In this document: in pieces, positions 15,998-39,615 of the stretch | Position numbering within the stretch: the stretch's first letter is position 1 | How the letters are laid out: every line of letters starts with the position of its first letter | Assembly: GCA_031393795.1 (NCBI GenBank) | Contig: JANMWE010000217.1 | Coordinates: 1-45,320, forward strand | Origin: Gemmatimonadota bacterium | GTDB lineage: Bacteria; Gemmatimonadota; Gemmatimonadetes; Gemmatimonadales; GWC2-71-9 | Direction of reading: 5' to 3' | DNA length: 45,320 nucleotides | Position numbers and translations under genes: made by a program | Notes under the pieces: generated by a model | Told to the model about the DNA's origin: nothing | The model's input: the letters and a program-made list of their open reading frames with translations, nothing else | Databases searched by the model: none

Positions 15998-16020
15998 GAC
16001 GGAATCTAGGTAATTTCAAT

Positions 16021-16124
16021 GTACGAGGTGCGACGTGCGGGGATCCAAGCGCACGGTCCCCCGCATCCCTCGCCTTCGCTCGGGACAAGCTTCGGACTTC
16101 GCACTTCGCACTTCGCACTTCGCA
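16021..16124. repeat. Heptamer-armed palindromic element (GTGCGAR type)
   Basis: The left arm is GTACGAG GTGCGAC GTGCGGG (16021-16041). The right arm is CTTCGCA x4 (16097-16124), the reverse complement of GTGCGAAG-type units. It fills the divergent gap between the EamA gene and the enoyl-CoA hydratase gene. Confidence 0.6.
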
Positions 16125-16148
16125 CACCAATCACCTCGTGGCCCCACC

Positions 16149-16931
16149 ATGCAACTCACCCACCTCACCCTCGACGTCCGCGACGCGATCGCCTGCCTCA
16201 CGATCGACCGCGCCGACAAGCTCAATGCCCTCAACGCGGCGCTGATCGAGGACCTGGGTCACGCCGCCCACCATCTCGCCACGGACACCGCCATCCGTGG
16301 CGCCATCCTGACCGGCGCCGGCACCAAGGCGTTCGCCGCCGGGGCGGACATCGGCGAGATGAAGGACCAGAATTCCCAGCAGGGACTGGAGCGGGCCCGC
16401 CGCGGGCAGGAGGTGTTCCGGCGGCTCGAGACCTGCGGCAAGCCGGTCATCGCGGCAGTGAACGGCTTCGCCCTCGGCGGCGGGTGTGAGCTCGCAATGG
16501 CCTGCCACCTCCGGGTCGCGAGCACGACCGCCAAATTCGGGCAGCCGGAGGTGAAACTCGGCATCTGTCCCGGCTATGGCGGCACTGTCCGGCTCCCGCG
16601 GCTGGTCGGCAAGGGGCGCGCGATCGATATCCTCATCAGCGGCCGGACGGTGGACGCCGACGAGGCGCTCCGCATCGGGCTGGTGAACCGCGTGGTCGAG
16701 ACGGACGCATTGATGGCCGAGAGCGAGTCGCTGCTCCGCACCATCCTCGCGATGGGGCCCCTGGCGGTCCGCTCCTGCCTCGAATTGGTCGATGCCGGGA
16801 TGGAAGTCGGCCTCGAAGAAGCGCTCCGAATGGAGGCCACTCACTTCGGTCTTCTTTCGGGTTCGGAAGATCAGAAAGAGGGGATGGCCGCCTTTTTGGC
16901 GAAGCGTCCGCCGGCTTTTCAGGGACGCTGA
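16149..16931 (+). CDS. Enoyl-CoA hydratase/isomerase (crotonase) family protein
   Basis: ORF 16035..16931 trimmed to ATG 16149 (MQLTHLTLDVRDAIACLTIDRADKLNAL). Crotonase motifs GAGTKAFAAGADI and AAVNGFALGGGCELAMACH. Confidence 0.85.
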   Translation: MQLTHLTLDVRDAIACLTIDRADKLNALNAALIEDLGHAAHHLATDTAIRGAILTGAGTKAFAAGADIGEMKDQNSQQGLERARRGQEVFRRLETCGKPVIAAVNGFALGGGCELAMACHLRVASTTAKFGQPEVKLGICPGYGGTVRLPRLVGKGRAIDILISGRTVDADEALRIGLVNRVVETDALMAESESLLRTILAMGPLAVRSCLELVDAGMEVGLEEALRMEATHFGLLSGSEDQKEGMAAFLAKRPPAFQGR

Positions 16932-16946
16932 AATCGATCGCTTTTC

Positions 16947-16985
16947 AGCCCGCGCCGGACCTGCATTTCGGGGTCCGGCGCGGCT
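16947..16985 (+). terminator. GC-rich hairpin downstream of the enoyl-CoA hydratase gene
   Basis: AGCCCGCGCCGGACC (16947-16961) pairs with GGTCCGGCGCGGCT (16972-16985), giving a ~14-bp stem. The tail is ACATTAAAGG, which is weakly U-rich. Confidence 0.4.
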
Positions 16986-16996
16986 ACATTAAAGGA

Positions 16997-17410
16997 ATGG
17001 GGAGCGGGGTATTTTTTTCGCGTTCGGCGGTCGCCGCGGCACTCCTTGCGGGGGGTCTGGGGTGCGAGGATCGGGCCCGTCCGGAGTTCATCGGGACCGG
17101 GAATGGGGTGGGTCCGCTGAGCCAGGTGACCGCCCCGTCGGAACTCGATACGGTCCACCTCGGGACCAGCTTCTTCCTCGCGGTGCGGGCCGCGGACCTG
17201 GACGGAGTGGACTCGGTCTGGGTGACGATCTCGGACACGAATCTCCCCGGCCTCCGCTACAGTGGCAGTGGCCAGGAGGTGTCATCGGCGGGGTACTCCG
17301 TGCTGCTCCCCGCCTCGCTCCCCGAGAACACATTGATCGTGAGCGTCCAGGGTGTCGACCTGTTGGGTGATACCGGCACGGTCTTTCTGCGGCACCTGCT
17401 CGTCCAGTAG
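16997..17410 (+). CDS. Small secreted/lipoprotein-like protein, unknown function
   Basis: N-terminus MGSGVFFSRSAVAAALLAGGLGC (signal peptide ending in Cys). Beta-rich, Ig-like feel. Its stop TAG overlaps the recF GTG by 1 nt. Confidence 0.5.
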   Translation: MGSGVFFSRSAVAAALLAGGLGCEDRARPEFIGTGNGVGPLSQVTAPSELDTVHLGTSFFLAVRAADLDGVDSVWVTISDTNLPGLRYSGSGQEVSSAGYSVLLPASLPENTLIVSVQGVDLLGDTGTVFLRHLLVQ

Positions 17411-18489
17411 TGCGACTTCGCCGGCTGGTGGCGCGCGGGTTCCGGAACCTCGCCCCGCTCGATCTCGAGGTCCCCTCGACCGGTGTGGCCCTCCTCGGCT
17501 CCAACGGCGCCGGCAAGACCAACGTCCTCGAAGCGATCTACTATCCGGTGCTCTTCCGCTCCTTTCGAGGGGCGGCGGACAGCGAAGTGGCCCGGTTCGG
17601 CGGTGAAGGATTCCACGCCGAGGTGACGTTCGGGGATGGTACCGCGCCGGGGACGGCGGCGGCGACCTGGACCGCGGTGGGACGGGAAAAGCGCCTGGTG
17701 ATCGACGGCGCGCCGGTGGGTACGCTCGCGGCGGCGGCAGGACGGTGGCTGGCGGTGGCCTTCCTCCCCTCCGACACCGGCCTCGCAGGCGGGCCACCAG
17801 CAGAGCGGCGCCACTATCTCGACCGGATGCTGGCGCTCGCTTCCCCCGACTACCTGCGCGCGCTGGCCCGCTATCGGCAGGGAGTGTCCCGCCGGAATGC
17901 CGCGCTCCGGCGGAACGAACCCGTGGCGGCGCAGGCCTTCGAGCCGGCGATCGCGGCGGCCGGGGCCCCGGTGATGGCGGCCCGACTCGAGTGGGCCGCG
18001 GCGGCCCGGGCCGACTTCGCCAGGGAATTCGCCGCGCTCGGCGAGGCCCTCCCCGCCGACCTGGCCTACGCGGGCGACGAGACGCTCGCCGACCCGGCCG
18101 CCTGGCCCGAACAATTCCGCGCGGTGCGCGATCGCGACCGCCAGCGCGGCATCACCTCGGTGGGGCCGCACCGGGATGACCTCCGGCTGACGCTCGCGGG
18201 GAAATCGCTGGGCCGTTACGGATCGACCGGACAGCAGCGGAGCGCGGCGATCGCGCTCAAGCTCCTCGAACTCGCCACCCTTCGGGCGGCCCGATCGGAA
18301 GAGCCGGCGCTGCTCCTGGATGACGTCTTCGCCGAACTCGACCGCGACCGGCAGGGCCGGCTGGCCGAACGGCTCACCGGCGGCGGCGTGCGGCAAGTAG
18401 TGGTGACCAGTCCGCGGCGGGAGGAGTTGCCGGGGGAGCTGAAGTTGCCGGTGTGGAGGGTGGAGGGGGGAGTCGTGAAGGGGGCCTAG
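17410..18489 (+). CDS. recF: DNA replication and repair protein RecF
   Basis: MRLRRLVARGFRNL... with Walker A GSNGAGKTNVLEAI, the SMC-like signature GSTGQQRSAAIALKL, and Walker B LLLDDVFAELD. Confidence 0.85.
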   Translation: MRLRRLVARGFRNLAPLDLEVPSTGVALLGSNGAGKTNVLEAIYYPVLFRSFRGAADSEVARFGGEGFHAEVTFGDGTAPGTAAATWTAVGREKRLVIDGAPVGTLAAAAGRWLAVAFLPSDTGLAGGPPAERRHYLDRMLALASPDYLRALARYRQGVSRRNAALRRNEPVAAQAFEPAIAAAGAPVMAARLEWAAAARADFAREFAALGEALPADLAYAGDETLADPAAWPEQFRAVRDRDRQRGITSVGPHRDDLRLTLAGKSLGRYGSTGQQRSAAIALKLLELATLRAARSEEPALLLDDVFAELDRDRQGRLAERLTGGGVRQVVVTSPRREELPGELKLPVWRVEGGVVKGA

Positions 18490-18581
18490 GGAATGGGGCC
18501 TAGGGCGTTCAAGTACTTAACCGGCGCGGCTTGCACCGATCCTCGACATCGCCTCCCCAGGCACCAGGCCCAAGGCCCCGA

Positions 18582-18920
18582 ATGCGCGACCGCTCAAAGA
18601 CATCCGCCAAACCCACCCTGCTCGCCGAGGCCCTCCAGGCATGGATCAAGCGGAAGGGACTGGTCAAGCGGATGGACCAGGCGGTGGTGCTGGGGGAATG
18701 GGCCGAGCTGGTGGGGCCGCAGATCGCGAAGGTGGCGGTGCCGGAGAGCGTGACGCCGGACGGCGTGCTGCGGGTGAAGGTGGCCACGGCGCCGTGGGCG
18801 ACGGAACTGCAGATGATGACGCCCAAGATCATCGGGCGCTTGAACACCGGACGGCCGGGACGGCCGATCACCGGGATCCGCTGGGTCGTCGGGGCGCTGG
18901 GCCCCGATGGGACACTCTGA
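18582..18920 (+). CDS. DUF721 (DciA-like) protein
   Basis: ORF 18531..18920 trimmed to ATG 18582. It holds the classical position between recF and gyrB. The core W.ELVGPQIAKVAVPESVTPDGVLRVKVATAPWATELQMMTPKII is typical of DUF721. Confidence 0.7.
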   Translation: MRDRSKTSAKPTLLAEALQAWIKRKGLVKRMDQAVVLGEWAELVGPQIAKVAVPESVTPDGVLRVKVATAPWATELQMMTPKIIGRLNTGRPGRPITGIRWVVGALGPDGTL

Positions 18921-20858
<1,938 letters not shown>

Positions 20859-20964
20859 CGCTGGGGCGCTCAGGCGCTGAGGCGGTGGACATCGGAAGGG
20901 CATGCAGCTCAGGGTCGAGCCTCGTGCCCTTCTGCATGTGTTGCAGCGCCTCAGCGCCCCAGCG
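20859..20964. terminator. Nested palindromes filling the convergent gyrB / kinase gap (likely a bidirectional terminator)
   Basis: The outer arms are CGCTGGGGCGCT(CAGGCGCT)GAGGCG (20859-20884) and CGCCTCAGCGCCCCAGCG (20947-20964). The inner stem is GAAGGGCA (20895-20902) / TGCCCTTC (20925-20932). Confidence 0.5.
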
Positions 20965-23900
20965 TCAGTCCACCTTCCGATCCAGCGCCGCCAGCGCCTG
21001 CCTGGCCAGATCCACTTCGCGCTGCAGCGGCCCATCCGCCTTGTCCCAGAGCGTCAGGAACCGGTCGTAGCGTACGCGCGCGCCCGCGGTGTCGCCGCGG
21101 GCCTCGAGGATCGCCGCGGCCGACGGGAGGGCCCGGACGCGCATCAGCACGAAGGGATCCACGTCGGTCGCGACCGCCACCGGCAACGAATCGATCCGGT
21201 CGTAATAGCGCAGCGCGACGTCGGGGCGACCGATCGCCTCGTTGGCCCGTGCCATCGACCAGAGCCGGATGACGCTGGTCGTGGTGTCCGGCCCGATATG
21301 CCCGAGCGCCCGCCGTGATCGCGCGGTGTCCCCCGCTTGGGCGTACGCCAGCGCGTAGAGCGACCAGTTGGTATCCGCCCCCTCCTGCGGCCAGGCGGCG
21401 AGGGTCGTCGTGTCCCCCACCGTGGCGGCCGCGACGCGCACGGGGGTGCGCACGATCCCACGGACCCTCGCCTGTCCCGGGCCGGAAAGGCGCGCCAGCC
21501 CGCGACGATACGCCAACGAGGCGGCCCGTACCTCATCCCGCGTCACGAGGCCGGTGGCCGAGCGCGCCAGCAGCCCGAAGAAGTCGGGCGAAGCGTCCAC
21601 GAAGCGCTGGATCTCGGGATTTCGTTTCCCCACATCGGCCTGCAAGAGCGCGACCAGCCTGGACGCTTCGCGCACTCGACCGGCCAGGACCCAGGTGTTG
21701 GCCAGGACGGCAGCCTGCAGACCATAGGTCTTGTAGGCGCTGTCGGGCCCGATGCTCCCGACCGAATCGCCCAACTTCAGGAGCTTGTCCCACCGGCGCG
21801 CCGCCGAGAGCAGGGCCATTCGGCGCAGCGGGAGCGCCTCGGCACTTGGGACACCGAGCTGCTGGGCCCGGCCCAGGGCCGCGAGCGCCGAATCGTATTG
21901 CTCGGCCGCGGCGTGGAGGTCCGCGAGCTGGAGATAGGCGGCCCCTTCGAGGGGGGCCACCGCCAGCCAGCGACGGGTCACTGCGACCGCGCGGACCCTG
22001 GCCCGCGCGCGAAGCGAGTCGATCACCCGCGGGGTGAGCCACGGCGGCTGTGAGTCGGACGGGAAGATCGCGATCGAATCGCCGACATAGCCGAGATGGA
22101 ACAAAGCATCGGGGATCCGATTGAAGACGGTCGGCAGATCACCGTTCGGCTGATGGAGGAACCCGGGGATCTCGAGACCGTCTTTCGAGCTCAACTGCGA
22201 ATAGAGCCCGGCGACATTGACGAACAGGGTGTGATCGGACTCGTCGAGCGCCAGCGCGCGCTCGTACGCACGGAGCGCGCGCGCATACGACCCCTGCACC
22301 CCGCGGTGGCCGCGGACGGTGTCGAGCGCCATGTCGTACTGCCACGCCGCACCGAGGAGCTGCCACGCGAGCGCGTTGGCGGAGTCCTTCGCCACCACCT
22401 GTCCCAGCAGTTGGCGTGCCTCGGCGAAACGGGCGTGCACCAGCGCGTTGTACCCCTGGATCAATTCCCGCTCGCGCGCCGGGCGGCCCGTCGCGTGGGC
22501 CAATGCGCTATCGGCAAAGGCGGCGAACTCCGGCACCGTGTGCGCCCACGCATCGTTGAAGACCAGGATGCTCCGCTCCATCCACGCGGTGGCGAAGGCG
22601 GGATCCGCCGCGGTGGCGCGCGCGAAGGAACGTTTGGCGCTGTCGACGCCCCACACCGACCGCTCGCGGATCCCCTGGACGTACGCGGCCCACGCTTCGA
22701 TCGAACGGGTCGGCGGGTCCTCGCCGGGCAGCTGCGCCACCGGCGCGCCGATCGAGGTGAGGAGCCGATCGGCCAGATCGCGGAAGGCGGTGGGGATGGC
22801 GCTGTCACCGACCACGGCGGCGCTGTCGCGCCGCAACTCGTTGCCGGTGACGACATCGTACGTCTTGAGCTGGACGGTGATCCGGTCGCCGAACTTGAAG
22901 ATCGACCCGACCGAGGCGGTCCACACTCCCGCGGCCCGCGCCATCGCGCGGACGTCATCGAGCGACTGACCGGAGTCCGGAGAGACCCCCTCCCGGCGCG
23001 CCAGGTCCAGCAGACGCTCGGCGTCCACCACCCTGAGGTCATCCCACCGCTGCATCTGGCCGGCCAGAAGCTTCACCCCGCCGATGCGGAGCCAGTCGAG
23101 CGAGCGGTCCTGGCTGGTATCGAAGAAACCGATCAGGAGGGACCGCCGAGGATCGACGCCACGAGGGACCCCGCCCTGCCCCCGTACCCACCACCCGCCG
23201 ATCAGGGCGAGGAGGAGGACCACGGCCGTGGCGACCCCGGGGACACGCCACCGGCGGAGTCCGCCGGACCGCGGGGCCCCCAAGCCGGTGGTGGTCGACG
23301 TGAGGAGCCCGTCGAGGGCCGCCACCACTTCGTCTCCCGTCTGGAATCGCTTGGCCGGGTCCTTGGCCAGCAGCCGGTCGATGATCAGCTCGGCCGCCAG
23401 CGGCAGGTCGGGCCGCTTGGCGCGGAGCGAGAGGGGGGCCTGGACGAGGTGCGCCGCCGCCGCCCCGCTCGGGCTCGACAGCTGATACGGATACGCCCCG
23501 GCGAGCATCTCATAGAAGACGATCCCGAGGGCATAGAGGTCGGACGGCGGACCGAGCGTGCGGCTCCCCGAGGCCTGCTCGGGAGACATATAGCGCGGGG
23601 TCCCGACCACCATCCCGAATCCGGTGAGCCGGTCGGCGTCAGCGCCGGTGGTCGCATTCCCCGCCACCGCGCCAGCGATACCGAAGTCCACCACCAGCGA
23701 CCGGCCGGTCTCGGGGTCCATCAGGATGTTCTGCGGCTTCACGTCACGATGGAGGATCCCGCGCCGGTGCGCCGCCGCGAGCGCCGAAGCCACCTCCCGC
23801 GCGACCCGGACCGCTTCAGCGAACGGGAGTTGCCCCTGGCGCGCCATCCGATCGGCGAGGCTCCCGCCATCGACATAGGCCATGACGAAATAGGCGAGAT

Positions 23901-24162
23901 CCCCCGAACTCCCGACCCGAAGGATCGACACGATGTTCGGGTGCTGGATCGCCGCCGCGGTCTCGGCCTCGCGTTGGAAGCGGCTCCGGAACATCGGGCT
24001 CGCGCCGAGCTCGGGGTCGAGCACCTTGATGGCGATCAGGCGGTTGAGCGCGACCTCACGCGCCAGGTAGACCGAGGCCATCCCCCCCTGTCCCAGAAGG
24101 CGGATGATCTCGAAATCCTGACCGAGTGCGCCGCGGACGCGTTCGAGGAGGGGGTCGCTCAT
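20965..24162 (-). CDS. Ser/Thr protein kinase with a TM helix and a large extracytoplasmic TolB-N-like/TPR sensor region
   Basis: Hanks kinase motifs GQGGMASVYLA, AIKVL, HRDVKPQNIL, DFGIA, GTPRYMSPEQ. TM helix VATAVVLLLALIGGWWV. Then a ~730-aa helical-repeat ectodomain. Confidence 0.9.
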   Translation of the reverse strand: MSDPLLERVRGALGQDFEIIRLLGQGGMASVYLAREVALNRLIAIKVLDPELGASPMFRSRFQREAETAAAIQHPNIVSILRVGSSGDLAYFVMAYVDGGSLADRMARQGQLPFAEAVRVAREVASALAAAHRRGILHRDVKPQNILMDPETGRSLVVDFGIAGAVAGNATTGADADRLTGFGMVVGTPRYMSPEQASGSRTLGPPSDLYALGIVFYEMLAGAYPYQLSSPSGAAAAHLVQAPLSLRAKRPDLPLAAELIIDRLLAKDPAKRFQTGDEVVAALDGLLTSTTTGLGAPRSGGLRRWRVPGVATAVVLLLALIGGWWVRGQGGVPRGVDPRRSLLIGFFDTSQDRSLDWLRIGGVKLLAGQMQRWDDLRVVDAERLLDLARREGVSPDSGQSLDDVRAMARAAGVWTASVGSIFKFGDRITVQLKTYDVVTGNELRRDSAAVVGDSAIPTAFRDLADRLLTSIGAPVAQLPGEDPPTRSIEAWAAYVQGIRERSVWGVDSAKRSFARATAADPAFATAWMERSILVFNDAWAHTVPEFAAFADSALAHATGRPARERELIQGYNALVHARFAEARQLLGQVVAKDSANALAWQLLGAAWQYDMALDTVRGHRGVQGSYARALRAYERALALDESDHTLFVNVAGLYSQLSSKDGLEIPGFLHQPNGDLPTVFNRIPDALFHLGYVGDSIAIFPSDSQPPWLTPRVIDSLRARARVRAVAVTRRWLAVAPLEGAAYLQLADLHAAAEQYDSALAALGRAQQLGVPSAEALPLRRMALLSAARRWDKLLKLGDSVGSIGPDSAYKTYGLQAAVLANTWVLAGRVREASRLVALLQADVGKRNPEIQRFVDASPDFFGLLARSATGLVTRDEVRAASLAYRRGLARLSGPGQARVRGIVRTPVRVAAATVGDTTTLAAWPQEGADTNWSLYALAYAQAGDTARSRRALGHIGPDTTTSVIRLWSMARANEAIGRPDVALRYYDRIDSLPVAVATDVDPFVLMRVRALPSAAAILEARGDTAGARVRYDRFLTLWDKADGPLQREVDLARQALAALDRKVD

Positions 24163-24171
24163 CCCGGAAAG

Positions 24172-25578
24172 CTAGCCGACCGGGGTCCGGCGCCGATACC
24201 GCCCGACGAAATAGAGTCCCGCCCCGATGGCGACCATCATCAGGCTCGACCCGACCACCTTGATCACCGCGAGCCGAGGGTTCGGGTCATCGGCCGGGGG
24301 AAGGCAGGAGAGGACTATGCTGATGAGCACCGTCGCCAGGCCCAGTGCCCCGAGGAGCACCCCGACCCCCCGCCCTCCGGGCACCCGTTTCACTTCGGGA
24401 CCGGCGGGGAGCCATTGCGACCTGATCATCGCTGCGTACATCAGCGCATACGGGATGAAGAAGGAAATGACCCCGAGATTGACCAGGATCGTGTACGCGT
24501 TCCGGACCGAAGTGCCGGCCTGGCCGAGCACCGCGATCCCGCCGGCGATGAGGGCCTGCACCACGAGCGCGAAGACCGGCGTGCCCCACTTCGGGTGGAG
24601 CTTGGCGAACGCCGGCGGGAGCGCCTTGTCGACGCCGGCCACGAACGGCAGCCGGCTCATCGCGGCCATCCACGCCCCGACGCCGCCGATGCTGCCGAGC
24701 GAGATCAGGAAGGCCGCCACCGGCGAGAGGGCACCGAGCCCGACCCGCGAGACCGCCCGGTCGATCGCCTGCATGATCCCCTGCAGGCTCGTCATCTCGT
24801 TGGCGGGGATCGCCACGAGCGCCGCGATGGTGCCGAGGATGTAGACCGCGACGATGCTGATCCCGGCGACGAAGATCGCCCGCGGGATGGTGCGCCGGGT
24901 ATCGTGGATCTCGTCGCCCAGCATCGAGGCGCTCTCGAGTCCGCCGAAGCCGAAGGCGAGGGTACTCCAGAAGGCGATCGTCGTGATGCCGCCGTGGGGG
25001 AGCATCGTCTGGATCGTGAAGGTGGTGGCGCTCCCGAACTTCACGTACGAGATGATCCCGGCCAGCACCAGCAGCCCGATCGGAAGCCAGGTGGCCCAGG
25101 CGCCGATGTTGTTGAGGTGCTTGCCGATCTCGAGCCCGACGATGTTCACCCAGAGGGCGAGGGCGAGGCAGCCGAGGGAGAACCAGATGAAGAAGACGGG
25201 ATCCGCCGAGTGGGCCAGCCAGCTCGGCCCACCGACGAAGAGGATATTGCCGGCCGCGAAGTAGAGCAGTCCCGGGAAGTAGACCAGATTGCTGGCCCAG
25301 TAGAGCCACCCCGTCATGAACCCGGTGAACTCGCCGAAGGTCTCCCGGGCCCAGACATAGATCCCGCCCTCCTCAGGGTACCGGCTCGAGAGCTCGAGCA
25401 CCGTGAACGCCGACGGGATGAACATCCCGACGCAAGCGAGCCCCCAGAGGAGGATCGAGCTCGGCCCGGCCGCGGCGGCGTTCCCGATCCAGCGGGGGCC
25501 GATGACGGCCACGATATAGAAGAGCGTGACGTCGCGAAGGGTAAGGACGCGGTGGAGGCCTTTGGTTTCCGCTGGCAT
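24172..25578 (-). CDS. APC-superfamily amino acid permease
   Basis: ORF 24172..25878 trimmed to ATG 25578 (MPAETKGLHRVLTLRDVTLFYIVAVIGPRWI...). About 12 TM helices. The upstream part of the tracked ORF runs through a repeat element. Confidence 0.85.
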   Translation of the reverse strand: MPAETKGLHRVLTLRDVTLFYIVAVIGPRWIGNAAAAGPSSILLWGLACVGMFIPSAFTVLELSSRYPEEGGIYVWARETFGEFTGFMTGWLYWASNLVYFPGLLYFAAGNILFVGGPSWLAHSADPVFFIWFSLGCLALALWVNIVGLEIGKHLNNIGAWATWLPIGLLVLAGIISYVKFGSATTFTIQTMLPHGGITTIAFWSTLAFGFGGLESASMLGDEIHDTRRTIPRAIFVAGISIVAVYILGTIAALVAIPANEMTSLQGIMQAIDRAVSRVGLGALSPVAAFLISLGSIGGVGAWMAAMSRLPFVAGVDKALPPAFAKLHPKWGTPVFALVVQALIAGGIAVLGQAGTSVRNAYTILVNLGVISFFIPYALMYAAMIRSQWLPAGPEVKRVPGGRGVGVLLGALGLATVLISIVLSCLPPADDPNPRLAVIKVVGSSLMMVAIGAGLYFVGRYRRRTPVG

Positions 25579-25595
25579 GGGCTCCCGTCGAGAGT

Positions 25596-25730
25596 GTGCG
25601 AGGTGCGAGGTGCGAGGTGCGAAGTCCGGGGGGTGTGAACATCGACCTGAAAGTGTTGAATTGAAATGCGAGTTGGTGAAGAGATCTTCGGCCTCATACG
25701 CCCCGGACCTCGGACCCCGCACTTCGGACC
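25596..25730. repeat. Heptamer-armed palindromic element (GTGCGAG type) with an AT-richer core
   Basis: The left arm is GTGCGAG x3, GTGCGAA, GTCCGGG (25596-25630). The right arm is CCCCGGACCTCGGACCCCGCACTTCGGACC (25701-25730). The 70-nt core is about 47% GC by my count. Confidence 0.65.
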
Positions 25731-25969
25731 TAGTTGCCGGGTGCCCCCGGCCCCCAACCGTCCTCCGGGCGCTCATCCTCAGGTGTAGCGGTCGCGGAGA
25801 TCCCGCGGACCTCGCGCTCGGCCCGCTCCAGTTCCTCCCGGTCGATCGGCGCGGCGCTGCCGTCATCGAGCGGGTCATCGGGGTCGGGAGCGTAGGTCCG
25901 CTTCGGTTGGATGCGCCAAGCGACGAGGATGATCACCCCAAGGACCGCCACCGTCAGGACGACGATCAC
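25730..25969 (-). CDS. Small membrane protein (one TM helix, acidic tail), hypothetical
   Basis: GTG 25969 overlaps the deoA stop (GTGA). MIVVLTVAVLGVIILVAW is followed by a Pro/Asp/Glu-rich tail. No family recognised. Confidence 0.45.
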   Translation of the reverse strand: MIVVLTVAVLGVIILVAWRIQPKRTYAPDPDDPLDDGSAAPIDREELERAEREVRGISATATPEDERPEDGWGPGAPGN

Positions 25970-27294: not shown

Positions 27295-27341
27295 TAGAGC
27301 GTTCCCTTACGCAATATCGATCCCCGGAGCGGGAGTTCCCA

Positions 27342-28121: not shown

Positions 28122-28195
28122 ATTGACCCGCGCAAGGTAGCGCCCCGGGCCCCGCTCCGACAGGCGGGGCTCGGTCCTCTCCACCTCGATCTCCG

Positions 28196-31169
<2,974 letters not shown>

Positions 31170-31209
31170 AACCCCTTGCCGCCACCCCAGCCCCACTCTA
31201 ACCTTAGAC

Positions 31210-31758
31210 ATGCCTTCCGCTATCGCGATCGCCCACGGGGGCGTGACCATCCCCGCCGCTTCGCTGCACGTCCTCCGCCAGGCCCTGGAAGAGGGGGGGC
31301 AGGACGCGGCCGCGGTGATGCAGCAGGCGGGGTTCGCGGCCGGACCGGCGCTGCTCGGGGCGTTCAATGCCTGGCTCCATTCCGAGCGCGGGATCGAGGA
31401 CGCGGCGCTGCTCGACCGCGACCACCTGGACGATGCGCTTTCGGGCTTCTTCGGCCAGACCGGCTGGGGCACCCTGACCGTCAGCACCCTCGGCGGCGGA
31501 CTCCTCACCCTCGACTCCCCCGACTGGGCCGAGGCGATCCCCAACAGCACCGAGTGGCCGAGCTGCCTGCTCTCGACCGGGCTCCTGCCCGCCTTCCTCG
31601 GCGCCCTCGGCGGCCACTCCCTCGGCGCGATGGAACTCGAGTGCCGCTCACGCGGGGATCGGCGGTGCCGGTTCGTGGTCGGGGCCCCCGACAACCTGCA
31701 CACGCTCTATGAACGGTTGGCGCTGGGAATGAAGCTCGAGGATGCGGTCCGCGGATAG
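31210..31758 (+). CDS. V4R (4-vinyl reductase-like) domain protein
   Basis: ORF 31117..31758 trimmed to ATG 31210. The C-terminal pattern ELECRSRGDRRCRFVVG is typical of V4R small-molecule binding domains. Confidence 0.6.
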   Translation: MPSAIAIAHGGVTIPAASLHVLRQALEEGGQDAAAVMQQAGFAAGPALLGAFNAWLHSERGIEDAALLDRDHLDDALSGFFGQTGWGTLTVSTLGGGLLTLDSPDWAEAIPNSTEWPSCLLSTGLLPAFLGALGGHSLGAMELECRSRGDRRCRFVVGAPDNLHTLYERLALGMKLEDAVRG

Positions 31759-31802
31759 GCTCCGGAGGGGGTCGGTGCCTCACCCCGTGCCCCCCAGAAC
31801 GA

Positions 31803-31841
31803 CCTCACCCCCTGACCCCCTCTCCCTTGCGGGAGAGGGGG
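31803..31841 (+). repeat. Dispersed 39-nt hairpin repeat, copy 1 (possible terminator of the V4R gene)
   Basis: CCTCACCCCCTGA followed by the hairpin CCCCCTCTCCC-TTGC-GGGAGAGGGGG (31816-31841), then AACTTATTTCT. A near-identical copy lies in reverse orientation at 43695-43732. Confidence 0.55.
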
Positions 31842-31918
31842 AACTTATTTCTGAGGGGGTGCAACCATTCTTCCCATCCCCCCGTCCTACCGGACATCCC
31901 TGGTCCTTGGAGCCGAAG

Positions 31919-33001
31919 GTGCCCCGTAAGCACATCCGCCACACCGCATTGTCCCTGATCGTCCTGATCTCAGCTGCATCCATCCTCTTCGCCCAGACTC
32001 CCGAACGGGTGACCCTCACCGGGTCCCGGGTAGGGATCTGGAACATCGCGGGGAACGTCTCCGTGGGGGCCAGCACTGGCCGCGCGGTCGAGGTCTCGGT
32101 GACCCGTCGCGGTCCCGATGGCGCCAAGCTCACCCTGGCCCACGGTCCCATCGGCGGTCGCGAGACGTTGCGCGTGATCTATCCGGGGGACGAGATCGTC
32201 TACACCGACCGGACCCAGACGGGTGGCCGGTGGAGCACGGAGCTCCGCGTACAGGACAATGGGACCTTTGGGGGCGACGACTACGTCCGCGGTCGAGACG
32301 ACCACGGCCGGCGTGTCCGGGTGGCCAGCTCGGGAGACGGCACGGAGGCGTCGGCCGACCTCGACGTCCAGGTCCCGGCGGGACAGGAGCTCAGCATCTT
32401 CCTGGCCGTGGGGCAGGTCACCGCCCGCAACGTGAACGGGAAGATCCTCCTCGATACCCACGGCGCCGACATCACCGCCAGCGCGATGAAAGGAGACCTC
32501 TCGGTCGACGCCGGCTCCGGCGACGTGCAGGTGAACGGAATGGACGGACCACTGACCATCGACGTCGGTTCGGGCGATCTTACCCTCTCCGACGTGAGGG
32601 GGACCACGCTCGACCTCGACACCGGCTCGGGCGACGTGCGCGGGACCGGAATGGTCGCGGACGTGCTCAAGGTCGATACCGGCTCCGGCGACGTGCAGCT
32701 CGAGGGACTCACCGCGCAAAATGCCAAGATCGATGTTGGCTCGGGTGACGTGACGCTCAGCTGGATCACTGACCCGGGCGACGTGGACATCGACAGCGGC
32801 TCGGGCGACGTGACCCTCACCCTCCCCGGCAACTCCGGCGGCACAGTGGACCTCGAGAGCTCGAGCGGAGACATCGAGAGCGCGTTCGACATCTCCACGA
32901 CGCACATCGAGCGCGACGTGCTCCGTGGCACCTTCGGCGACGCCAAGGGACGGATCGGCGTGGAGACGGGGAGCGGGGATGTGCGGTTGATCAAACGGTA
33001 G
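31919..33001 (+). CDS. DUF4097-like beta-helical repeat protein (putative adhesin-type fold)
   Basis: ORF 31742..33001 trimmed to GTG 31919 (VPRKHIRHTALSLIVLISAASILFAQ, a signal peptide). It has seven D-x-GSGD[VL] repeats plus one SSSGDI, at roughly 20-aa spacing. Confidence 0.7.
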   Translation: MPRKHIRHTALSLIVLISAASILFAQTPERVTLTGSRVGIWNIAGNVSVGASTGRAVEVSVTRRGPDGAKLTLAHGPIGGRETLRVIYPGDEIVYTDRTQTGGRWSTELRVQDNGTFGGDDYVRGRDDHGRRVRVASSGDGTEASADLDVQVPAGQELSIFLAVGQVTARNVNGKILLDTHGADITASAMKGDLSVDAGSGDVQVNGMDGPLTIDVGSGDLTLSDVRGTTLDLDTGSGDVRGTGMVADVLKVDTGSGDVQLEGLTAQNAKIDVGSGDVTLSWITDPGDVDIDSGSGDVTLTLPGNSGGTVDLESSSGDIESAFDISTTHIERDVLRGTFGDAKGRIGVETGSGDVRLIKR

Positions 33002-33040
33002 ACGGGTAGCATTGCAACGGAACCGTCCCGAACGGAGAGA

Positions 33041-33067
33041 GGGACCTAGCTAGACCAGCTAGGTCCC
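33041..33067. terminator. Hairpin between convergent genes
   Basis: GGGACCTAGCT (33041-33051), loop AGACC, AGCTAGGTCCC (33057-33067). This is a perfect 11-bp stem. Confidence 0.5.
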
Positions 33068-33117
33068 TCGTCGTTGCACTCCTCGGGACGGCTCCGAGCT
33101 TTCGGCCGCCGGTCCGC

Positions 33118-34404
33118 CTACCCGCCTGAGACCACCGCCACCCCCTCCGCCACCATCGCCGGCAGGCACTGGCTTCCCCGCCATTCCACGTCCCGCCCGA
33201 TGCCGCGCAGGCGGCCGAGGAGCTCGTACGCGTTCCCGGCGATCACCGCTCCCTTCACCCGTCCCACGACCTCTCCCTTCTCCACCCGCCAGCCGAGTGC
33301 CACTGGAAGGGTGAATCCGCCGGCGGGGCCGACCACGCCGTCGTCCTCCAGCGATCCGACGATGAGCCCTTCATCCAGCATGCCGAGGAGCACTTCGAAG
33401 GCGTGCGGGCCCGGCTCCACGACCACGTTGCTCCACGCGGTGAGGGGCTTGCCGAAGGTGGTGCGGCGCGCGTGTCCTGTGGAGCGTGTGCCGGCCCGCG
33501 TGGCCGTTTCCAGGTCGTACAAGAATCCCCGGATCACTCCCGACTCCACCACCACGGTCCGGGCGCTCGGCACTCCCTCATCATCGAGGGGACGGGAGCC
33601 GGCCCGCGCGTCGAGTGTGGGATCGTCGACGATGGTGAGCCCGGGATCGAACACCCGTTCGCCGATCTTCTCGGCGAAGGGCGAAAGCCCGAGCAGGGCG
33701 GAGCGGCCGAGGAGCGCCGTCCTGGCCGGTGTGAGCAGGGCCGCGGCGGCACCGGGGAGGAAGCAGACCGGGAGGTGCCCGCGCGGGGCGGTCGCCTCGG
33801 TCGCCGACCAGGAGAGCCGGCGGCGTAATCCATCGACCAGCTGTTCGATCGCCTCGCCTTCGGGAAGGTCGGCGCCCGCGACGTGCGCGCGGAGGGTCGC
33901 CCCCTCCTTCGTCGTCACTTCGGCGAGGATGGCGACGAGGGAGGTCTCGTAGCCGGCGTCGAGCCCGGCACTGTTCGCCACCCGGACCGCGCCGACCCCC
34001 CGCTCGACCGCGACGTGCACCCGGCGCCCATCGGCGGCGAGACGGTCGGCCACCATCTGGCCCAGGAAGCGGAGCTCGTCGGCGGCGACGGCGGCGGCAC
34101 GCGGCACCCGCGTGAGCACGCGCGGCGTGGGCCGGGCCTCGGGGAGCTCCACTTCGGCGGGGGGACCCTGCTCTGCGGCGTCGAGGGCGGAGGCGACCAC
34201 CGCTGCCGCATCATCGTCGGTGGTACCGGCGACACCGACGCGGCCGTCGCGGAAGAGCCGGACGTTGACGCCCCTCTCGCGGAGGAGCGACGATCGGACC
34301 AGGACTCCGGCCGCCAATTCGAGGACGAGGGTCTCGTCCTGCTTGGCCACGAGGTCTCCGCGCGCGCCGGCCCGGTGGATCTGCTCGAGCAGGCGCGGGA
34401 TCAC
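33118..34404 (-). CDS. PmbA/TldE family protein
   Basis: ORF 33118..34554 trimmed to GTG 34404 (GTGA overlap with the tldD-like stop). TldD/PmbA (U62) fold similarity across its length. It is the expected partner position. Confidence 0.8.
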   Translation of the reverse strand: MIPRLLEQIHRAGARGDLVAKQDETLVLELAAGVLVRSSLLRERGVNVRLFRDGRVGVAGTTDDDAAAVVASALDAAEQGPPAEVELPEARPTPRVLTRVPRAAAVAADELRFLGQMVADRLAADGRRVHVAVERGVGAVRVANSAGLDAGYETSLVAILAEVTTKEGATLRAHVAGADLPEGEAIEQLVDGLRRRLSWSATEATAPRGHLPVCFLPGAAAALLTPARTALLGRSALLGLSPFAEKIGERVFDPGLTIVDDPTLDARAGSRPLDDEGVPSARTVVVESGVIRGFLYDLETATRAGTRSTGHARRTTFGKPLTAWSNVVVEPGPHAFEVLLGMLDEGLIVGSLEDDGVVGPAGGFTLPVALGWRVEKGEVVGRVKGAVIAGNAYELLGRLRGIGRDVEWRGSQCLPAMVAEGVAVVSGG

Positions 34405-35756
34405 GCGGTCAATCCTCCCACCTGGAGGTGGCGGATACGCACGTGGCCCGCGCCGTCGGTGACCGGCACCGCGCCATCGATGCCGCGGGCGCAGCGGCTC
34501 GCGGCGACGTTCCACTGAAAGTCCCCCGCCACGGCGTCGATGCCGCCGAGCCAATCGGCGCCGGGGCCGCGGACCACACAGTCGCGCACCGGCTCGGCCA
34601 GACGTCCGTCGCGGATCATCGCCGCTTCGCCCACCGTGAGCACCAGCCGTTCGCCGTCCCAGTTGGCACCGCGCACGTCGCTGACGTAAAGCCCGTTTCG
34701 GATCCCGGCGAGGAGGTCATCTCGGGTCCCTTCGCCGCGTGCGAGGTAGAAGTTGGTGACGCGGGCGGAGGGGAGGTGGCGGAACGAGGCGGCCCGTGCG
34801 CTCCCGGTAGGGGCCTCACCAGTGCGCCCGGCGCTCTGGCGTGAGTGGAGTCGCGCCACCACCACGCCCGACTGGACGAGGAGGGTGGGCTGGGCGGGAC
34901 TCCCTTCGTCGTCATAGGCGATCGTGCCGCGGAGGGGCGAAGCGCTGGCGTCGTCGCCCACCGTGAGGAAGGGACTGCCGATCTCGGCGCCGAGGCGGAG
35001 AGGCGCGGGGGAATCACCGTCGAGACGATGGGCCAGGGCGGCGTGGATCATCGTGCCGGCCGCGCCGGGATCGAGCACCACCGGCATCTCGCCCGGACGG
35101 GGGCGGCCGGCGCCGAGGAGGGCGATGGCGCGCGCGCCGACCGAGCGCGCCCACCCTTCGCGCCCCTGCAGGGCGTCCCAGCCGCCGCGCACCGCGAGGG
35201 AATCGACCGCGCGCGCGGTGAGCCCTTCCTCGCGCGCCACCGCGACCAGGGAGAAGGTCCCTTCGCTCCGGAGATCGTGGATGCGGCTCCCCTCGCTCGA
35301 TGCGTACCACCGCTCCACAACTTCATCGCGCACCGCGAGCTGGAGATCAACGATGCGGCGGTCCATTCCGTAGAGCTCTGCCACCAGGGTATCGAGGAGG
35401 CGGCGGCGCTCGGCGACAGGGACCGCACGGAGATCCTGAGCGGGGGCGTGGGCGAGGTCGAGCTCGCGCGCGGGGACGGGCGCGAGTCGGGGGGCGGGAT
35501 CGGCCTGGACCGCGAGGGCGAGTTCCCAGGCGCGAGTGACCATCTCGCCCAAGCGGTCGAACCCGGTGAAGCTCACGCTCCCCCACCCACGACCGTGCAC
35601 GAGACAGCGGACCACGCCCCCGGCGTCGCGGGCGTGGGTGAGTCCTTCGACGCGGCGGCCGCGGGCGGCCGCGGTGCCTGCCCAGGCGCGCTCGCACCGG
35701 ATGTCGGTGAAATCGGCGCGACTGCTCTTGAGGGCCTCGCTCAGCTGATCGAGCAT
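34401..35756 (-). CDS. tldD: TldD family protein (HExxxH replaced by HAxxxH)
   Basis: ORF 34401..35876 trimmed to ATG 35756. It aligns by eye to E. coli TldD: GEMPVVLDPGAAGTMIHAALAHRLDGD versus [27 protein letters not shown]. The C-terminal Cys (SRCARG) and the ...LQVGGLTA end are retained. Confidence 0.85.
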   Translation of the reverse strand: MLDQLSEALKSSRADFTDIRCERAWAGTAAARGRRVEGLTHARDAGGVVRCLVHGRGWGSVSFTGFDRLGEMVTRAWELALAVQADPAPRLAPVPARELDLAHAPAQDLRAVPVAERRRLLDTLVAELYGMDRRIVDLQLAVRDEVVERWYASSEGSRIHDLRSEGTFSLVAVAREEGLTARAVDSLAVRGGWDALQGREGWARSVGARAIALLGAGRPRPGEMPVVLDPGAAGTMIHAALAHRLDGDSPAPLRLGAEIGSPFLTVGDDASASPLRGTIAYDDEGSPAQPTLLVQSGVVVARLHSRQSAGRTGEAPTGSARAASFRHLPSARVTNFYLARGEGTRDDLLAGIRNGLYVSDVRGANWDGERLVLTVGEAAMIRDGRLAEPVRDCVVRGPGADWLGGIDAVAGDFQWNVAASRCARGIDGAVPVTDGAGHVRIRHLQVGGLTA

Positions 35757-35764
35757 GAACGGGG

Positions 35765-35792
35765 GTGCGACGTGCGAGGTGCGAAGTGCGAT
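35765..35792. repeat. Solo heptamer array (GTGCGAN x4)
   Basis: GTGCGAC GTGCGAG GTGCGAA GTGCGAT, located 9 nt upstream of the tldD start. I found no convincing inverted partner arm. Confidence 0.45.
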
Positions 35793-35808
35793 GGGAGACG
35801 AGGCACCC

Positions 35809-36369
35809 TCACCCCTGCGCCAACCGGTCGGCGTAGTCGGGGCGGACGACGAGCTTTCCCTTGGAGAGGACTTCACGGTCCCAGGGGAGGACGATGAACG
35901 ACGCGGTGAGGAAGGCCTCGTAGTCGGGGCGCCAGGTGCCGGTCTGTATCGCCACCGCGGTGCGGACCTCCTTGGGACGCAGGGCCTCGACCTCCCGGAC
36001 CGCCAGCCGCATCGTCTCGCCGCTGTCGCAGGTGGCGTCGACGATGAGCACTCGGCGCCCCTTGAGGGTGGCCGGCGGGCCGCTCACGAGCACCGGCGCC
36101 TGGCCCTTGCCGGGACGGGCCACCGACATCGAGGCGAATTCACGCTGAAGGATGGACGCGACCACGACGCCGGGGATCGCGCCGGCGCGGACGATGCCGA
36201 GGACCACTTCGGGGTCGAAATCGCGCGCCACCTTGAGGGCGAGGGCCCGGCAGAGCTCGCCGAAGAAGGGCCAATCGACCTCGAGGGTGGCCTCGGGGCC
36301 TGCGACGCGACGCGCCGGGGACTTGGGCGCGGCCTTCCTGGTCTTGGGGCTCGTCTTGCGTGCAGGCAT
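35809..36369 (-). CDS. Phosphoribosyltransferase (type I PRTase) family protein
   Basis: ORF 35809..36867 trimmed to ATG 36369. PRPP-binding loop RVLIVDATCDSGETM. Basic Lys/Pro-rich N-terminal tail. Confidence 0.7.
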   Translation of the reverse strand: MPARKTSPKTRKAAPKSPARRVAGPEATLEVDWPFFGELCRALALKVARDFDPEVVLGIVRAGAIPGVVVASILQREFASMSVARPGKGQAPVLVSGPPATLKGRRVLIVDATCDSGETMRLAVREVEALRPKEVRTAVAIQTGTWRPDYEAFLTASFIVLPWDREVLSKGKLVVRPDYADRLAQG

Positions 36370-36465
36370 CGGGGGCTCCGGAGGGACGTGGAGGGAGTGT
36401 ACCGTGGGCTCCGACCGGGGGCAACTGCGTTGCCCAAGTCGATGCCCTGCTATAACTTCCGAACT

Positions 36466-36921
36466 ATGAGCCTGTGGCGGAAGCTGTTCGGCGGCGACGA
36501 TGCGACCAACGGTGGTGCGCCCACCCGCGGCCATCGACTCGACTATCAGAACGAGGCCCTCGCGCTCGAACGGCAGGGGGATTTCGAGGGGGCCCTGACC
36601 TCCTATCGCCTCGCGCTCCGCGGTGCCCCCACCGATGTCCGCCTGCTCCAGAACGTCGCGATCCTCTACAGCAAGACGGTCCAGCCGGAAGAGGCGATCC
36701 GCTACTACCGGAAAGCGCTCGACATCGACCGCGAACTTCCCGGCGCGCACTACGGGCTGGCGTTCCTCCTGGTGCGCCGCGGGTCGAACGCCGAGGCGGC
36801 GGAGCACCTCCGCGAGTTCCTGGCCCGACCGCTGAAGGGGGCCGACGCCGAGAAGTGGATCCGTCACGCCGAGGGGACGCTCCGCGAGATCGAATCGGCG
36901 CAGGCGGGGGGGGAGGCGTGA
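36466..36921 (+). CDS. Small TPR-repeat protein
   Basis: ORF 35755..36921 trimmed to ATG 36466 (MSLWRKLFGG...). TPR-like repeats (EGALTSYRLALRGAPTD..., EEAIRYYRKALDIDRELPGAHYGLAFLL). Confidence 0.6.
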   Translation: MSLWRKLFGGDDATNGGAPTRGHRLDYQNEALALERQGDFEGALTSYRLALRGAPTDVRLLQNVAILYSKTVQPEEAIRYYRKALDIDRELPGAHYGLAFLLVRRGSNAEAAEHLREFLARPLKGADAEKWIRHAEGTLREIESAQAGGEA

Positions 36922-37598
36922 GGCGGCGCCTCCAGGTGATCGCCGTCCTGCTCTTGGCGGCGGCGTGCAGCAAGCTCGGCCCGAGCGGGACGCCGGTGGC
37001 GATCGAGTTCCTGGTCCCGGTGCCGGCCGCGGTGGACATCGGCGACACCATCCAGCTCCGCGCGCGGGTGCTCGACACCAATGGTGACAGCATCGCAGCG
37101 ACGATCCGGTGGGTGACCCCCGACACCACCGTGGGGGTCGACAGCGTGACCGGACGGTTCTGGGGCCTCAAGGGGACGACCGGCAGGGTCCAGCCGGTGG
37201 CGGGATCACTGCTCGGCAATCCGACGCCGTTCGCGGTGCGTCGTCGAGCGGACACTTTGATCATCTCCCCGACCGCCGAGTCGCTCGTGGTGACGTTGGC
37301 GACCGATACCGCGTCCGTGGCGCTGACCCCGAAGGTGGCCAAGGCCGACACCGGGATCGCCGACCAGACGCTCGTGTTCACCCTGATCGCGCCGACACCG
37401 GCGGGCATCCGTCTGAGTGGGGACGTCACCACCCGCACCGTGACCACAGGGAGCACAGGCGAACCGGGGATCCCCGTCCGGGTCCGGAAGCTCACCGCCG
37501 TGGCCGGTGACAGCGCGATCGTGCGGGTCGAGGCCCGCCGCCCGAGCGGGGCCGTGGTGCCGGGGTCGGGGCAGGTCATTCGGGTCTTCTTCCAGTAG
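36918..37598 (+). CDS. Putative lipoprotein with Ig-like (Big_2-like) repeats
   Basis: ORF 36474..37598 trimmed to GTG 36918 (GTGA overlap). VRRRLQVIAVLLLAAACSK is a signal peptide ending in Cys. The body is beta-rich (IQLRARVLDTNGDSIAATIRWVTPD). Confidence 0.55.
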   Translation: MRRRLQVIAVLLLAAACSKLGPSGTPVAIEFLVPVPAAVDIGDTIQLRARVLDTNGDSIAATIRWVTPDTTVGVDSVTGRFWGLKGTTGRVQPVAGSLLGNPTPFAVRRRADTLIISPTAESLVVTLATDTASVALTPKVAKADTGIADQTLVFTLIAPTPAGIRLSGDVTTRTVTTGSTGEPGIPVRVRKLTAVAGDSAIVRVEARRPSGAVVPGSGQVIRVFFQ

Positions 37599-37614
37599 GT
37601 CCAGATCGCTCAAC

Positions 37615-37708
37615 ATGGCTCTTGGCTGTTGGCTACTGGTGGCTCCCGGCACCGACGCCATCGATTCAGTGATCCACCAGAAGCCAATAGCCAACAGCCC
37701 GCAATAGC
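37615..37708. repeat. Heptamer-armed palindromic element (TTGGCTR type)
   Basis: The left arm is ATGGCTC TTGGCTG TTGGCTA CTGGTGG (37615-37642). The right arm is CCACCAG AAGCCAA TAGCCAA CAGCCCG CAATAGC (37674-37708). The loop is 31 nt. Confidence 0.6.
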
Positions 37709-39555: not shown

Positions 39556-39615
39556 GGCGCGTGAGGTGCGGGAGCGGGTCGGGGCGCTCAGGGAGTTCCT
39601 GGGCGCCTTTCGCGT

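Follow-up and report, generated by a model that had tools for sequence, protein, structure and literature searches.

Tandem arrays of heptanucleotides, some of them in pairs of opposite orientation, are found in several bacterial genomes, and here we describe a family of intergenic hairpins with arms of this kind, first noticed in a 45,320 nt stretch of DNA (the window) from a Gemmatimonadota bacterium. In filamentous cyanobacteria such heptamer units are known as short tandemly repeated repetitive (STRR) sequences. Convergent arrays of the heptamer GGGAATC, G-rich array first and mostly with about four units, are present in Xanthomonas as 70–75 pairs per genome; they are capable of forming stem-loops, are intergenic with a strong bias to positions at or over the stop codon, and have no known function (Rehm et al. 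2015, PMC4692102). The same work reports GGGGAYT arrays in Nostoc and cites a report on heptamer repeats of Calothrix. The intervening sequence (IVS) in the 23S rRNA of Coxiella burnetii has a 28-bp terminal stem, a strain-dependent number of GACAGAT heptamers in tandem and, in its loop, an S23p open reading frame (ORF) (Warrier et al. 2016, PMC4990558). It is located in helix 45, is cut out by RNase III and is seen as selfish and possibly once mobile; IVS are also found in Leptospira, and IVS hairpins devoid of an ORF exist (PMC4990558). Elements of four heptanucleotides (GGGACCG) occupy 49 sites in Geobacter metallireducens (PMC2700814), and TAACTGA direct repeats occur in the Beggiatoaceae, with one inverted case in Beggiatoa (PMC4679880). 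Finally, the repetitive extragenic palindromic (REP) sequences, including BIME and REPIN and associated with the REP-associated tyrosine transposase RAYT, are abundant intergenic imperfect palindromes at gene ends (e.g. PMC3116915).

In the preliminary description of the window it was stated that no described class with heptamer-phased arms was known, a statement contradicted by the precedents in Xanthomonas (PMC4692102), Coxiella (PMC4990558) and Geobacter metallireducens (PMC2700814). We place the elements next to the heptamer array pairs of Xanthomonas and the S23p-type IVS, and not among the REPs. With the former they share tandem heptamers in about four units, inverted pairs with the G-rich array first and the intergenic position at the stop codon; the differences are that in Xanthomonas there is essentially one unit per genome, a G-quadruplex reading and no gene family named, whereas here more than 80 units of 7, 8 or 9 nt are found and a G-quadruplex motif is present in 27/309. 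With the S23p-type IVS they share a 25–30-bp stem made of tandem heptamers, and elsewhere in this genome seven of eight PF05635 genes lie in such a loop; unlike the Coxiella IVS, the elements are placed between protein-coding genes, the five initially listed in the window carry no ORF, and RNase III was not found in the class. The cyanobacterial STRR are likewise dispersed intergenic tandem heptamers with several unit types per genome and an unexplained function, but they are described mainly as direct arrays, and inverted pairing, polarity and an associated gene are outside that description. The likeness to REP, BIME and REPIN consists in hairpins at gene ends, selfish or neutral with possible effects on mRNA, which attract insertions; a REP family is however one conserved palindrome with a flanking RAYT, while here the arms are multi-unit tandem arrays. 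Geobacter and the Beggiatoaceae show similar genome-specific bursts of tandem heptamers, typically of about four units and intergenic near gene ends, but their arrays were reported as direct, with a single unit per genome, and read as regulatory sites. New relative to the literature searched are the diversity of units, with 7, 8 and 9 nt, within a single genome, the quantification of polarity and unit grammar, slippage and swapping at the level of strains, the tie between gene-less and PF05635-bearing hairpins, and a host class in which RNase III was not found. The excess of bacterial tandem heptamers (STRR, Xanthomonas, Geobacter) has been noted for decades without a mechanism, and the rRNA IVS and the large S23p/Avd-like family are equally unexplained. 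This genome is an unusually rich and tractable case, as it combines many unit types, near-identical strains which are polymorphic, and gene-bearing and gene-less forms.

In each element a single unit of 7, 8 or 9 nt is repeated in tandem in both arms, which face each other across an unconserved core and mostly have about four units (25–35 nt) each; the G-rich strand nearly always points, 5' to 3', from the adjacent gene to the middle of the element. We consider it probable that the elements of the window are part of a genome-wide class of fast-evolving tandem-unit hairpins and represent the gene-less form of an element that may also carry a PF05635 gene. This reading draws on the architecture, abundance, polarity and placement of the elements, on their polymorphism in steps of one unit, their replacement and the concerted change of their arms, and on a statistical tie to PF05635. 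On balance we also expect the elements to act as DNA-level repeats and not as RNA signals tuned by the host, for which they may be close to neutral. The findings turn a vague repeat into testable statements on slippage, conversion between the arms, binding by protein and effects at the RNA level.

The genome assembly comprises 2.64 Mb in 319 contigs at 68% GC, with 2445 genes (89.5% coding) predicted by a home-made caller based on codon usage. Arrays were called by Tandem Repeats Finder (TRF) with a score of at least 36 and at least 3 copies. There are 452 arrays of period 7, 256 of period 8, 82 of period 9 and 36 of period 12, and no more than 25 for each of the periods 4, 5, 6, 10, 11 and 13. 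Within 250 nt, an inverted partner is present for 473 of the 878 arrays of period 6–10 and a direct partner for 45. Merging of the inverted arrays gives 309 paired elements, about one hairpin every 8.5 kb, with 7-mer units in 198, 8-mer units in 68 and 9-mer units in 39 of them. Spans have a median of 101 nt and cores one of 39 nt; altogether the elements account for 1.3% of the assembly and for about 12.6% of its non-coding part. Besides the octamers and nonamers, 88 canonical heptamers occur, and the copies per arm have a median of 4.1 (interquartile range 3.6–4.6). The preliminary description had made the family depend on further copies beyond the window and on an enrichment over shuffled controls. 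Both are present, the first with the approximately 309 paired elements and the second with nine strong period-7/8 arrays in the window against a mean of 0.22 (maximum 3) in 60 Markov-1 simulations. The inverted, phased architecture of one family is confirmed by these data, while the 7-nt phasing, initially thought to be constant, extends to units of 8 and 9 nt genome-wide.

All elements lie between protein-coding genes, and none in helix 25 or 45 of the 23S rRNA. They start at a median of 1 nt past the stop codon (interquartile range −4 to +6), which is often included in the first unit, end at a median of 15 nt ahead of the start codon and occupy a median of 86% of the intergenic region, so that the almost complete filling of gaps seen in the window holds for the genome. 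Elements occupy 28% of the convergent gaps, 15% of the divergent and 9.6% of the tandem ones. The 5' arm contains more G than C in 219 of the 236 arrays with a downstream inverted partner (about 93%). As a hairpin made of an arm, a loop and the reverse complement of the arm is identical on both strands, the order of the arms is a genuine property of the element. The ratio of G-first to C-first elements is 32:1 in divergent, 54:2 in convergent and 151:14 in tandem gaps, and the apparent exceptions are mostly due to the skew-neutral unit GCTATCG, always found in the GCTATCG-first order. Solo arrays follow the same rule, with a G-rich strand that leads away from the edge of the gene and into the intergenic region; in tandem gaps, solo arrays with G on the sense strand adjoin stops (median 1.5 nt) and those with C on the sense strand are near starts. 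Gaps without arrays have the skew in a mild form, the GC skew of the sense strand being −0.12 to −0.16 upstream of starts (C-rich) and a neutral +0.02 downstream of stops.

The units also obey a grammar. With shuffled versions of each unit as the reference, the enrichment of TGA and TAA is 2.2-fold, and ATG and GAT are depleted 12-fold and 7-fold, respectively. In the 5'-arm units of the 309 elements AT steps are nearly absent (ATG 3 vs 35.7 expected, GAT 5 vs 35.4, AAT 0) and AGT is over-used as well. Simple avoidance of start codons is a doubtful explanation, since GTG is common in the units. The enrichment of stop triplets is also present in divergent gaps (13 vs 7.4 expected), which rules out stop-codon content as a context-specific filter and makes the enrichment intrinsic to the units. 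Elements sharing the same unit have cores unrelated to each other. Approximately 36% of the cores fold on their own, either as terminator-like hairpins (A-tract, stem, T-tract) or as a palindromic miniature inverted-repeat transposable element (MITE) of about 85 nt.

In the window, the five paired elements and the solo array listed initially were all verified, with their coordinates and units, by reading the sequence, and the arrays were also called by TRF. The predicted RNA folds of the five have −47 to −73 kcal/mol (z = −3.9 to −6.6), and in 0/200 dinucleotide shuffles was a fold as good as the native one obtained. None of the cores of the window elements, which measure 12–70 nt, contains an ORF. 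No Rfam family was matched in the window, where rRNA was thus not found.

Element A lies in the divergent gap between an EamA transporter gene (start 15997, minus strand) and an enoyl-CoA hydratase gene (start 16149). It is composed of a G-rich 5' arm (GTACGAG GTGCGAC GTGCGGG; 16021–16041), an unconserved core of 55 nt (16042–16096) and a C-rich 3' arm with four CTTCGCA units (16097–16124; fold z = −4.5). Element B (18453–18579) had been overlooked; its left side (18453–18505) has three GTGGAGG units within the 3' end of a RecF-like gene followed by two copies of GGGGCCTAGG, its right arm has 3.6 units of CCCCAGG (18555–18579), and its fold is not significant (z = +0.9). In element C the G-rich arm (GTGCGAG x3, GTGCGAA, GTCCGGG; 25596–25630) is 18 nt from the start of an amino-acid permease gene, the C-rich arm (25701–25730) abuts the stop codon of a 79-aa ORF, and the core of 70 nt between them (25631–25700) has the 47% GC reported earlier (33/70; fold z = −6.6). 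The two elements surrounding ligA are D upstream and E downstream. The G-rich arm of D (28972–29006) begins 2 nt past the TGA of a GAF-domain gene and is followed by the core (29007–29041) and by a C-rich arm (29042–29070), which ends 5 nt ahead of the GTG start of ligA, over its ribosome-binding region (fold z = −3.9). The G-rich arm of E (31087–31123), of the GTGAGGA type, encodes the last seven codons of ligA (residues KRVRSKG) and its TGA stop; the core has only 12 nt (31124–31135) and the C-rich arm extends from 31136 to 31169 (fold z = −6.6).

The solo array (GTGCGAC/G/A/T; 35765–35792) is C-rich on the sense (minus) strand and located just 5' of a start codon, which is the place expected for a 3' arm. 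Element G has its 5' arm (TTGGCTG TTGGCTA CTGGTGG) at 37615–37642 and its 3' arm at 37674–37708 (fold z = −6.0). The copy at 39552, at first listed as a weak heptamer array, is a genuine element, here called H, but is armed with 9-mers (AGGCGCGNN; fold z = −2.5). Its left arm (39550–39574; TAAGGCGCG TGAGGTGCG and further units of the same 9-mer family) includes the TAA stop of an AMP-binding gene, and its right arm is CGCCTTTCG CGTCTATCG CGCCTTTGC (39604–39636).

Contigs of several other metagenomes encode the same GyrB protein, and change between strains was followed in 22 kb of three of them, which align to the window with 99.2–99.9% identity. All internal indels in these 22 kb fall into elements A, B (at 18481) or C. 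The two kilobases with elements A and B show 53–57 mismatches per kb, compared to 1–7 per kb elsewhere. The left arm of element C has five, six or seven units depending on the strain, while core, right arm and flanks are otherwise identical; this is direct evidence for slippage in steps of one unit and for arms that change independently. The right arm of element A has four units in the window and two in one conspecific strain. In three assemblies (loci L145, L147 and L149) element A is replaced, between the same flanks, by a hairpin with GGTACGT units and another core, so that at one junction (16007–16142 of the window) GTGCGAR and GGTACGT hairpins are found in strains about 99.2% identical, whose flanking genes are at background divergence. 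In element B the right arm reads CCCCAGG in the window and CGCTAGG in the other strains and in the closest species, and this CGCT to CCCC change of the right arm is paired with a change from AGCG to GGGG in the left arm; in the lineage of the window, the adjacent imperfect heptamers, which belong to the 3' end of the RecF-like gene, resemble each other more closely. The gap lengths of elements D, G and H and of the solo array are unchanged in the strains seen. Slippage, concerted change of both arms and replacement of whole elements are therefore direct observations.

As to how such changes arise, replication slippage would add or remove whole units in the arms, and the units would be homogenised within an arm and between the arms by intrastrand template switching or gene conversion in the hairpin. 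Homogenisation between the arms would preserve their complementarity as the sequence drifts. As the molecular route we favour template switching in the hairpin, with short-patch recombination as the alternative. At fixed junctions, gain, loss or exchange of whole elements occurs even between strains which are 99% identical.

The closest species available (genome G008) has a LigA 92% identical to that of the window and genes with about 88–92% nucleotide identity, and genome G004 is more distant. The junctions of elements A and C are empty in G008, with gaps of 58 nt and about 30 nt, and the junction of C holds a different element in G004. Upstream of ligA, at the position of element D, the genome of the window and G004 share the unit GTGCGAA around unrelated cores, and G008 has GTGCTGG arms around a core of 430 nt which encodes a PF05635 protein. 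Downstream of ligA (element E) both G008 and G004 carry 8-mer GGTAGGAA arms in place of the 7-mer GTGAGGA of the window genome. The unit, and even the period, may thus differ at one junction between species. Element G is orthologous in G008, with TTGG changed to CTGG in units of both arms and a compensatory pair of G to A and C to T changes in the innermost unit. No target-site duplication was seen at the filled and empty junctions compared between species and strains. Arrays are dense across the rest of the genus and sparser in other genera.

It was the cassette upstream of ligA in G008 that led to PF05635 (23S_rRNA_IVP), an S23p/Avd-like four-helix-bundle (4HB) family, as the candidate partner. 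There are eight PF05635 genes in the genome of the window (among them genes on contigs C40, C79, C176, C194, C211, C236 and C312), and seven of the eight have a tandem array on either side, in inverted orientation. With a local alignment score of at least 35 as the threshold, inverted arms flank 33/42 PF05635 genes in relatives belonging to three families, as compared to 6/371 small control genes of this genome, a control rate of about 1%; of the six armed controls, three turned out to be PF05635 genes, and the other three are simply positioned between two hairpins of the same family. One family of relatives has long inverted repeats around the gene which show no periodicity. In other phyla the same score is reached at 33 of 74 testable PF05635 loci, mostly by G-rich period-7 arms; examples include Mesorhizobium, Bosea, Devosia, Brevundimonas, Nostoc, Limnospira, Planctomycetota, Chloroflexota and Acidobacteriota. 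Two clades of the protein use two unit dialects, GGGTNTA-like and GGSAGTN-like, and close paralogs and orthologs keep a common unit and period, as do two paralogs of this genome which retain GGGTGAG arms at a DNA identity of only 68%. Where the neighbouring genes are co-directional, the PF05635 gene is antisense in 18/25 cases in relatives, and also in the cases of this genome. PF05635 genes are almost never found in divergent gaps (loci L021–L060 and this genome). Units of gene-less elements are within one mismatch of the arm unit of a gene-bearing element of the genus in 49% of cases, compared to 15% after shuffling. The gene-bearing form has the design of the ORF-bearing 23S rRNA IVS of Coxiella, here at ordinary gene junctions.

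For the phased binding arrays suggested in the preliminary description, the PF05635 pentamer family is thus a candidate protein by its statistical tie to the hairpins. The best structure match of the family is 2GSC (E = 9e-27), the pentameric XCC0516, and this solved member is a homopentameric toroid (PMC4990558). The family has been equated with Avd of the diversity-generating retroelements (PMC10053308; bioRxiv 10.1101/2023.10.23.563531), a positively charged barrel which binds nucleic acid (bioRxiv 10.1101/2023.10.23.563531). The arms centre on about four units. Ring proteins which read tandem repeats are an established principle, an example being TRAP. It is conceivable that the units are binding sites of the PF05635 ring, about one per subunit, and that the pentamer, together with host replication and repair, creates, maintains, homogenises, moves or replaces the hairpins at gene junctions; gene-bearing elements would then be autonomous and gene-less ones their dependent, non-autonomous partners. 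The presence of the gene within hairpins, also across phyla, the clades that track unit dialects, the units common to both forms and a gene copy number which follows array density would all fit such a protein. Only eight genes for about 300 hairpins with more than 80 unit types speak against it, as do relatives that have the gene in non-periodic inverted repeats and lack arrays, and no reverse transcriptase partner was found in the genome. In addition, hairpin loops may just be tolerated or preferred insertion sites, as the palindromic MITE nests there too. We therefore regard binding of the units by PF05635 as a tentative proposal with the odds rather against it. If true, it would constitute a previously undescribed protein-repeat system, explaining both the heptamer excess and the origin of the rRNA IVS.

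Several points also weigh against our broader reading of the elements as the gene-less form of PF05635-bearing hairpins. Remnants of the 4HB gene in gene-less cores amount to one trivial blastn match and no blastx match, which gives no support to a derivation by deletion. The more than 80 unit types face only eight PF05635 genes in this genome, and the relative G025 has eight such genes and no periodic arrays in the 55 kb sampled. The correlation between PF05635 genes per Mb and the density of arrays away from them (Spearman rho 0.62 in 27 genomes, 0.48 outside the genus) is not corrected for phylogeny, and the 80 loci collected across phyla are the nearest relatives of an armed gene, which biases the armed share upward. 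Neither a transposase moving the elements, nor target-site duplications, nor a reverse transcriptase (RVT_1, genome search) was found. Moreover, slippage alone does not explain the strict polarity, the unit grammar and the abutment to stop codons, which hint at selection or a directed process. The earlier suggestion of a non-autonomous mobile element is accordingly supported in part, by the gene-bearing counterparts and by the gain, loss and replacement seen, but a transposase, a target duplication and a common core are all missing.

In mRNA the elements would form stems of 25–35 bp directly past the stop and just ahead of the next ribosome-binding site, and the host could have selected them as RNA structures, i.e. 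as bidirectional terminators or insulators, as stabilisers of 3' ends, or as gates masking the next ribosome-binding site. The great predicted stability of the stems, their extension from the stop to about 15 nt ahead of the next start, the preference for convergent over tandem gaps (28% vs 9.6% occupied), the arm over the ribosome-binding region of ligA and the avoidance of ATG with a preference for stop triplets in the units are all compatible with such a role, and in Xanthomonas transcripts begin or end at such repeats more than at controls (PMC4692102). We nevertheless judge it unlikely, and the RNA hairpins under host selection proposed in the preliminary description find little support in the sequence comparisons. 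Among the transition mismatches in tandem gaps, 171 would be G.U pairs in the sense transcript and 158 would be G.U pairs in the antisense only (p = 0.51), so that selection for RNA pairing was not apparent in this test of G.U against A.C. Only 24/306 elements are followed by a T-rich 10-mer, and canonical Rho-independent terminators were rejected by the criterion of a GC-rich stem with a U-tract. Thirty-three elements are placed in divergent promoter gaps. In the closest species, and even in other strains of the same species, the corresponding junction may lack a hairpin or contain an unrelated one, and arm lengths vary freely by strain, e.g. seven units vs four.

RNase III is of relevance to the fate of such stems. 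By the model TIGR02191 it was found in 0/66 genomes of the same class, among which eight consist of a single contig, and in 14/15 genomes from other classes of the phylum. By the Pfam models PF00636 and PF14622 it was found neither in this genome nor in 30 of 31 relatives, the sole match being a partial ORF in a relative genome with 4% contamination. Excision by RNase III in the manner of the IVS can therefore not be assumed and is unlikely here, and long stems in mRNAs would persist, which counts in favour of an RNA function. One may speculate that the loss of RNase III allowed the hairpins to spread; should PF05635 indeed read the units, this loss may have let them proliferate in mRNAs.

Mobilisation by a RAYT, as for REP and BIME, would imply such a gene flanked by the arrays. 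A search for a RAYT partner detected five Y1-transposase-like ORFs (Y1_Tnp; 155–175 aa, HUH motif) in the genome (C183:2644-2967, C112:16899-17102, C42:4711-4941, C247:3993-4259 and C179:363-602). Each of them is flanked by classical palindromes of its own, and none by heptamer arrays. GTAG is the head tetranucleotide of many REPs and is present in some of the units, but the family has more than 80 unit types, arranged in tandem in the arms, and unrelated cores instead of one conserved imperfect palindrome of 20–40 nt, and we consider this explanation very improbable. The RAYT-like ORFs with their own REP-like palindromes represent several separate REP systems beside the heptamer hairpins. Our gene caller placed no gene over four of the five, and at C179 a call on the minus strand overlaps the ORF.

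The G-richness of the 5' arms (49% G) brings up G-quadruplexes on DNA or RNA, as proposed for the repeats of Xanthomonas and Nostoc, where about four units would supply the four G-tracts (PMC4692102). The canonical motif (G3+N1-7)3G3+ is however limited to the 27 of 309 5' arms mentioned above, and the commonest units GTGAGGA, GTGCGAG and GCTATCG are without a run of three G, which leaves this possibility with hardly any weight. Repeat addition by a reverse transcriptase in the manner of telomerase was considered because the polarity resembles two G-strand extensions joined head to head; it was rejected, as no RVT_1 was found in the genome.

Classical MITEs were rejected as well, given the unrelated cores and the lack of target-site duplications, the exception being the separate MITE-like element of about 85 nt nested in some cores. 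This palindromic element reads GGAACCKTCCYGA ... GARGGACCT ... AGGTCCYTC ... TCRGGAMGGTTCC and nests chiefly in hairpins with (GGCGGGTA)n arms, arrays being found beside 13 of its 19 strict matches. Examples are C41:459-548, C70:22904-22992 and C123:260-361, and two tandem copies are present downstream of ligA in G004. Three further readings were examined and rejected. The window contains four GTGCGAR elements, but a local chromosomal spread of one unit type was rejected, genome-wide clustering being weak (31 vs 22.8 ± 4.5, z = 1.8). Breakage of the assembly by arrays was rejected too, contig ends not being enriched (7.1% vs 5.8%, p = 0.17), and so was a cyanobacterial origin, the HIP1 octamer showing no enrichment.

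A practical consequence concerns annotation. The arms distort gene ends and gene calls, and gene callers extend or begin genes inside them, as seen at the end of ligA and in a public call for the V4R-domain gene downstream of it. This public call starts at 31117, inside the hairpin (region 31083–31210), and gives 213 aa compared to 182 aa here. Two further 8-mer arrays are found in the window, CGCGGTTT with 3.8 copies at 2574–2603, where no gene is called, and GCTGACGG with 4.1 copies at 40013–40045, within a 199-aa ORF (39616–40215, minus strand).

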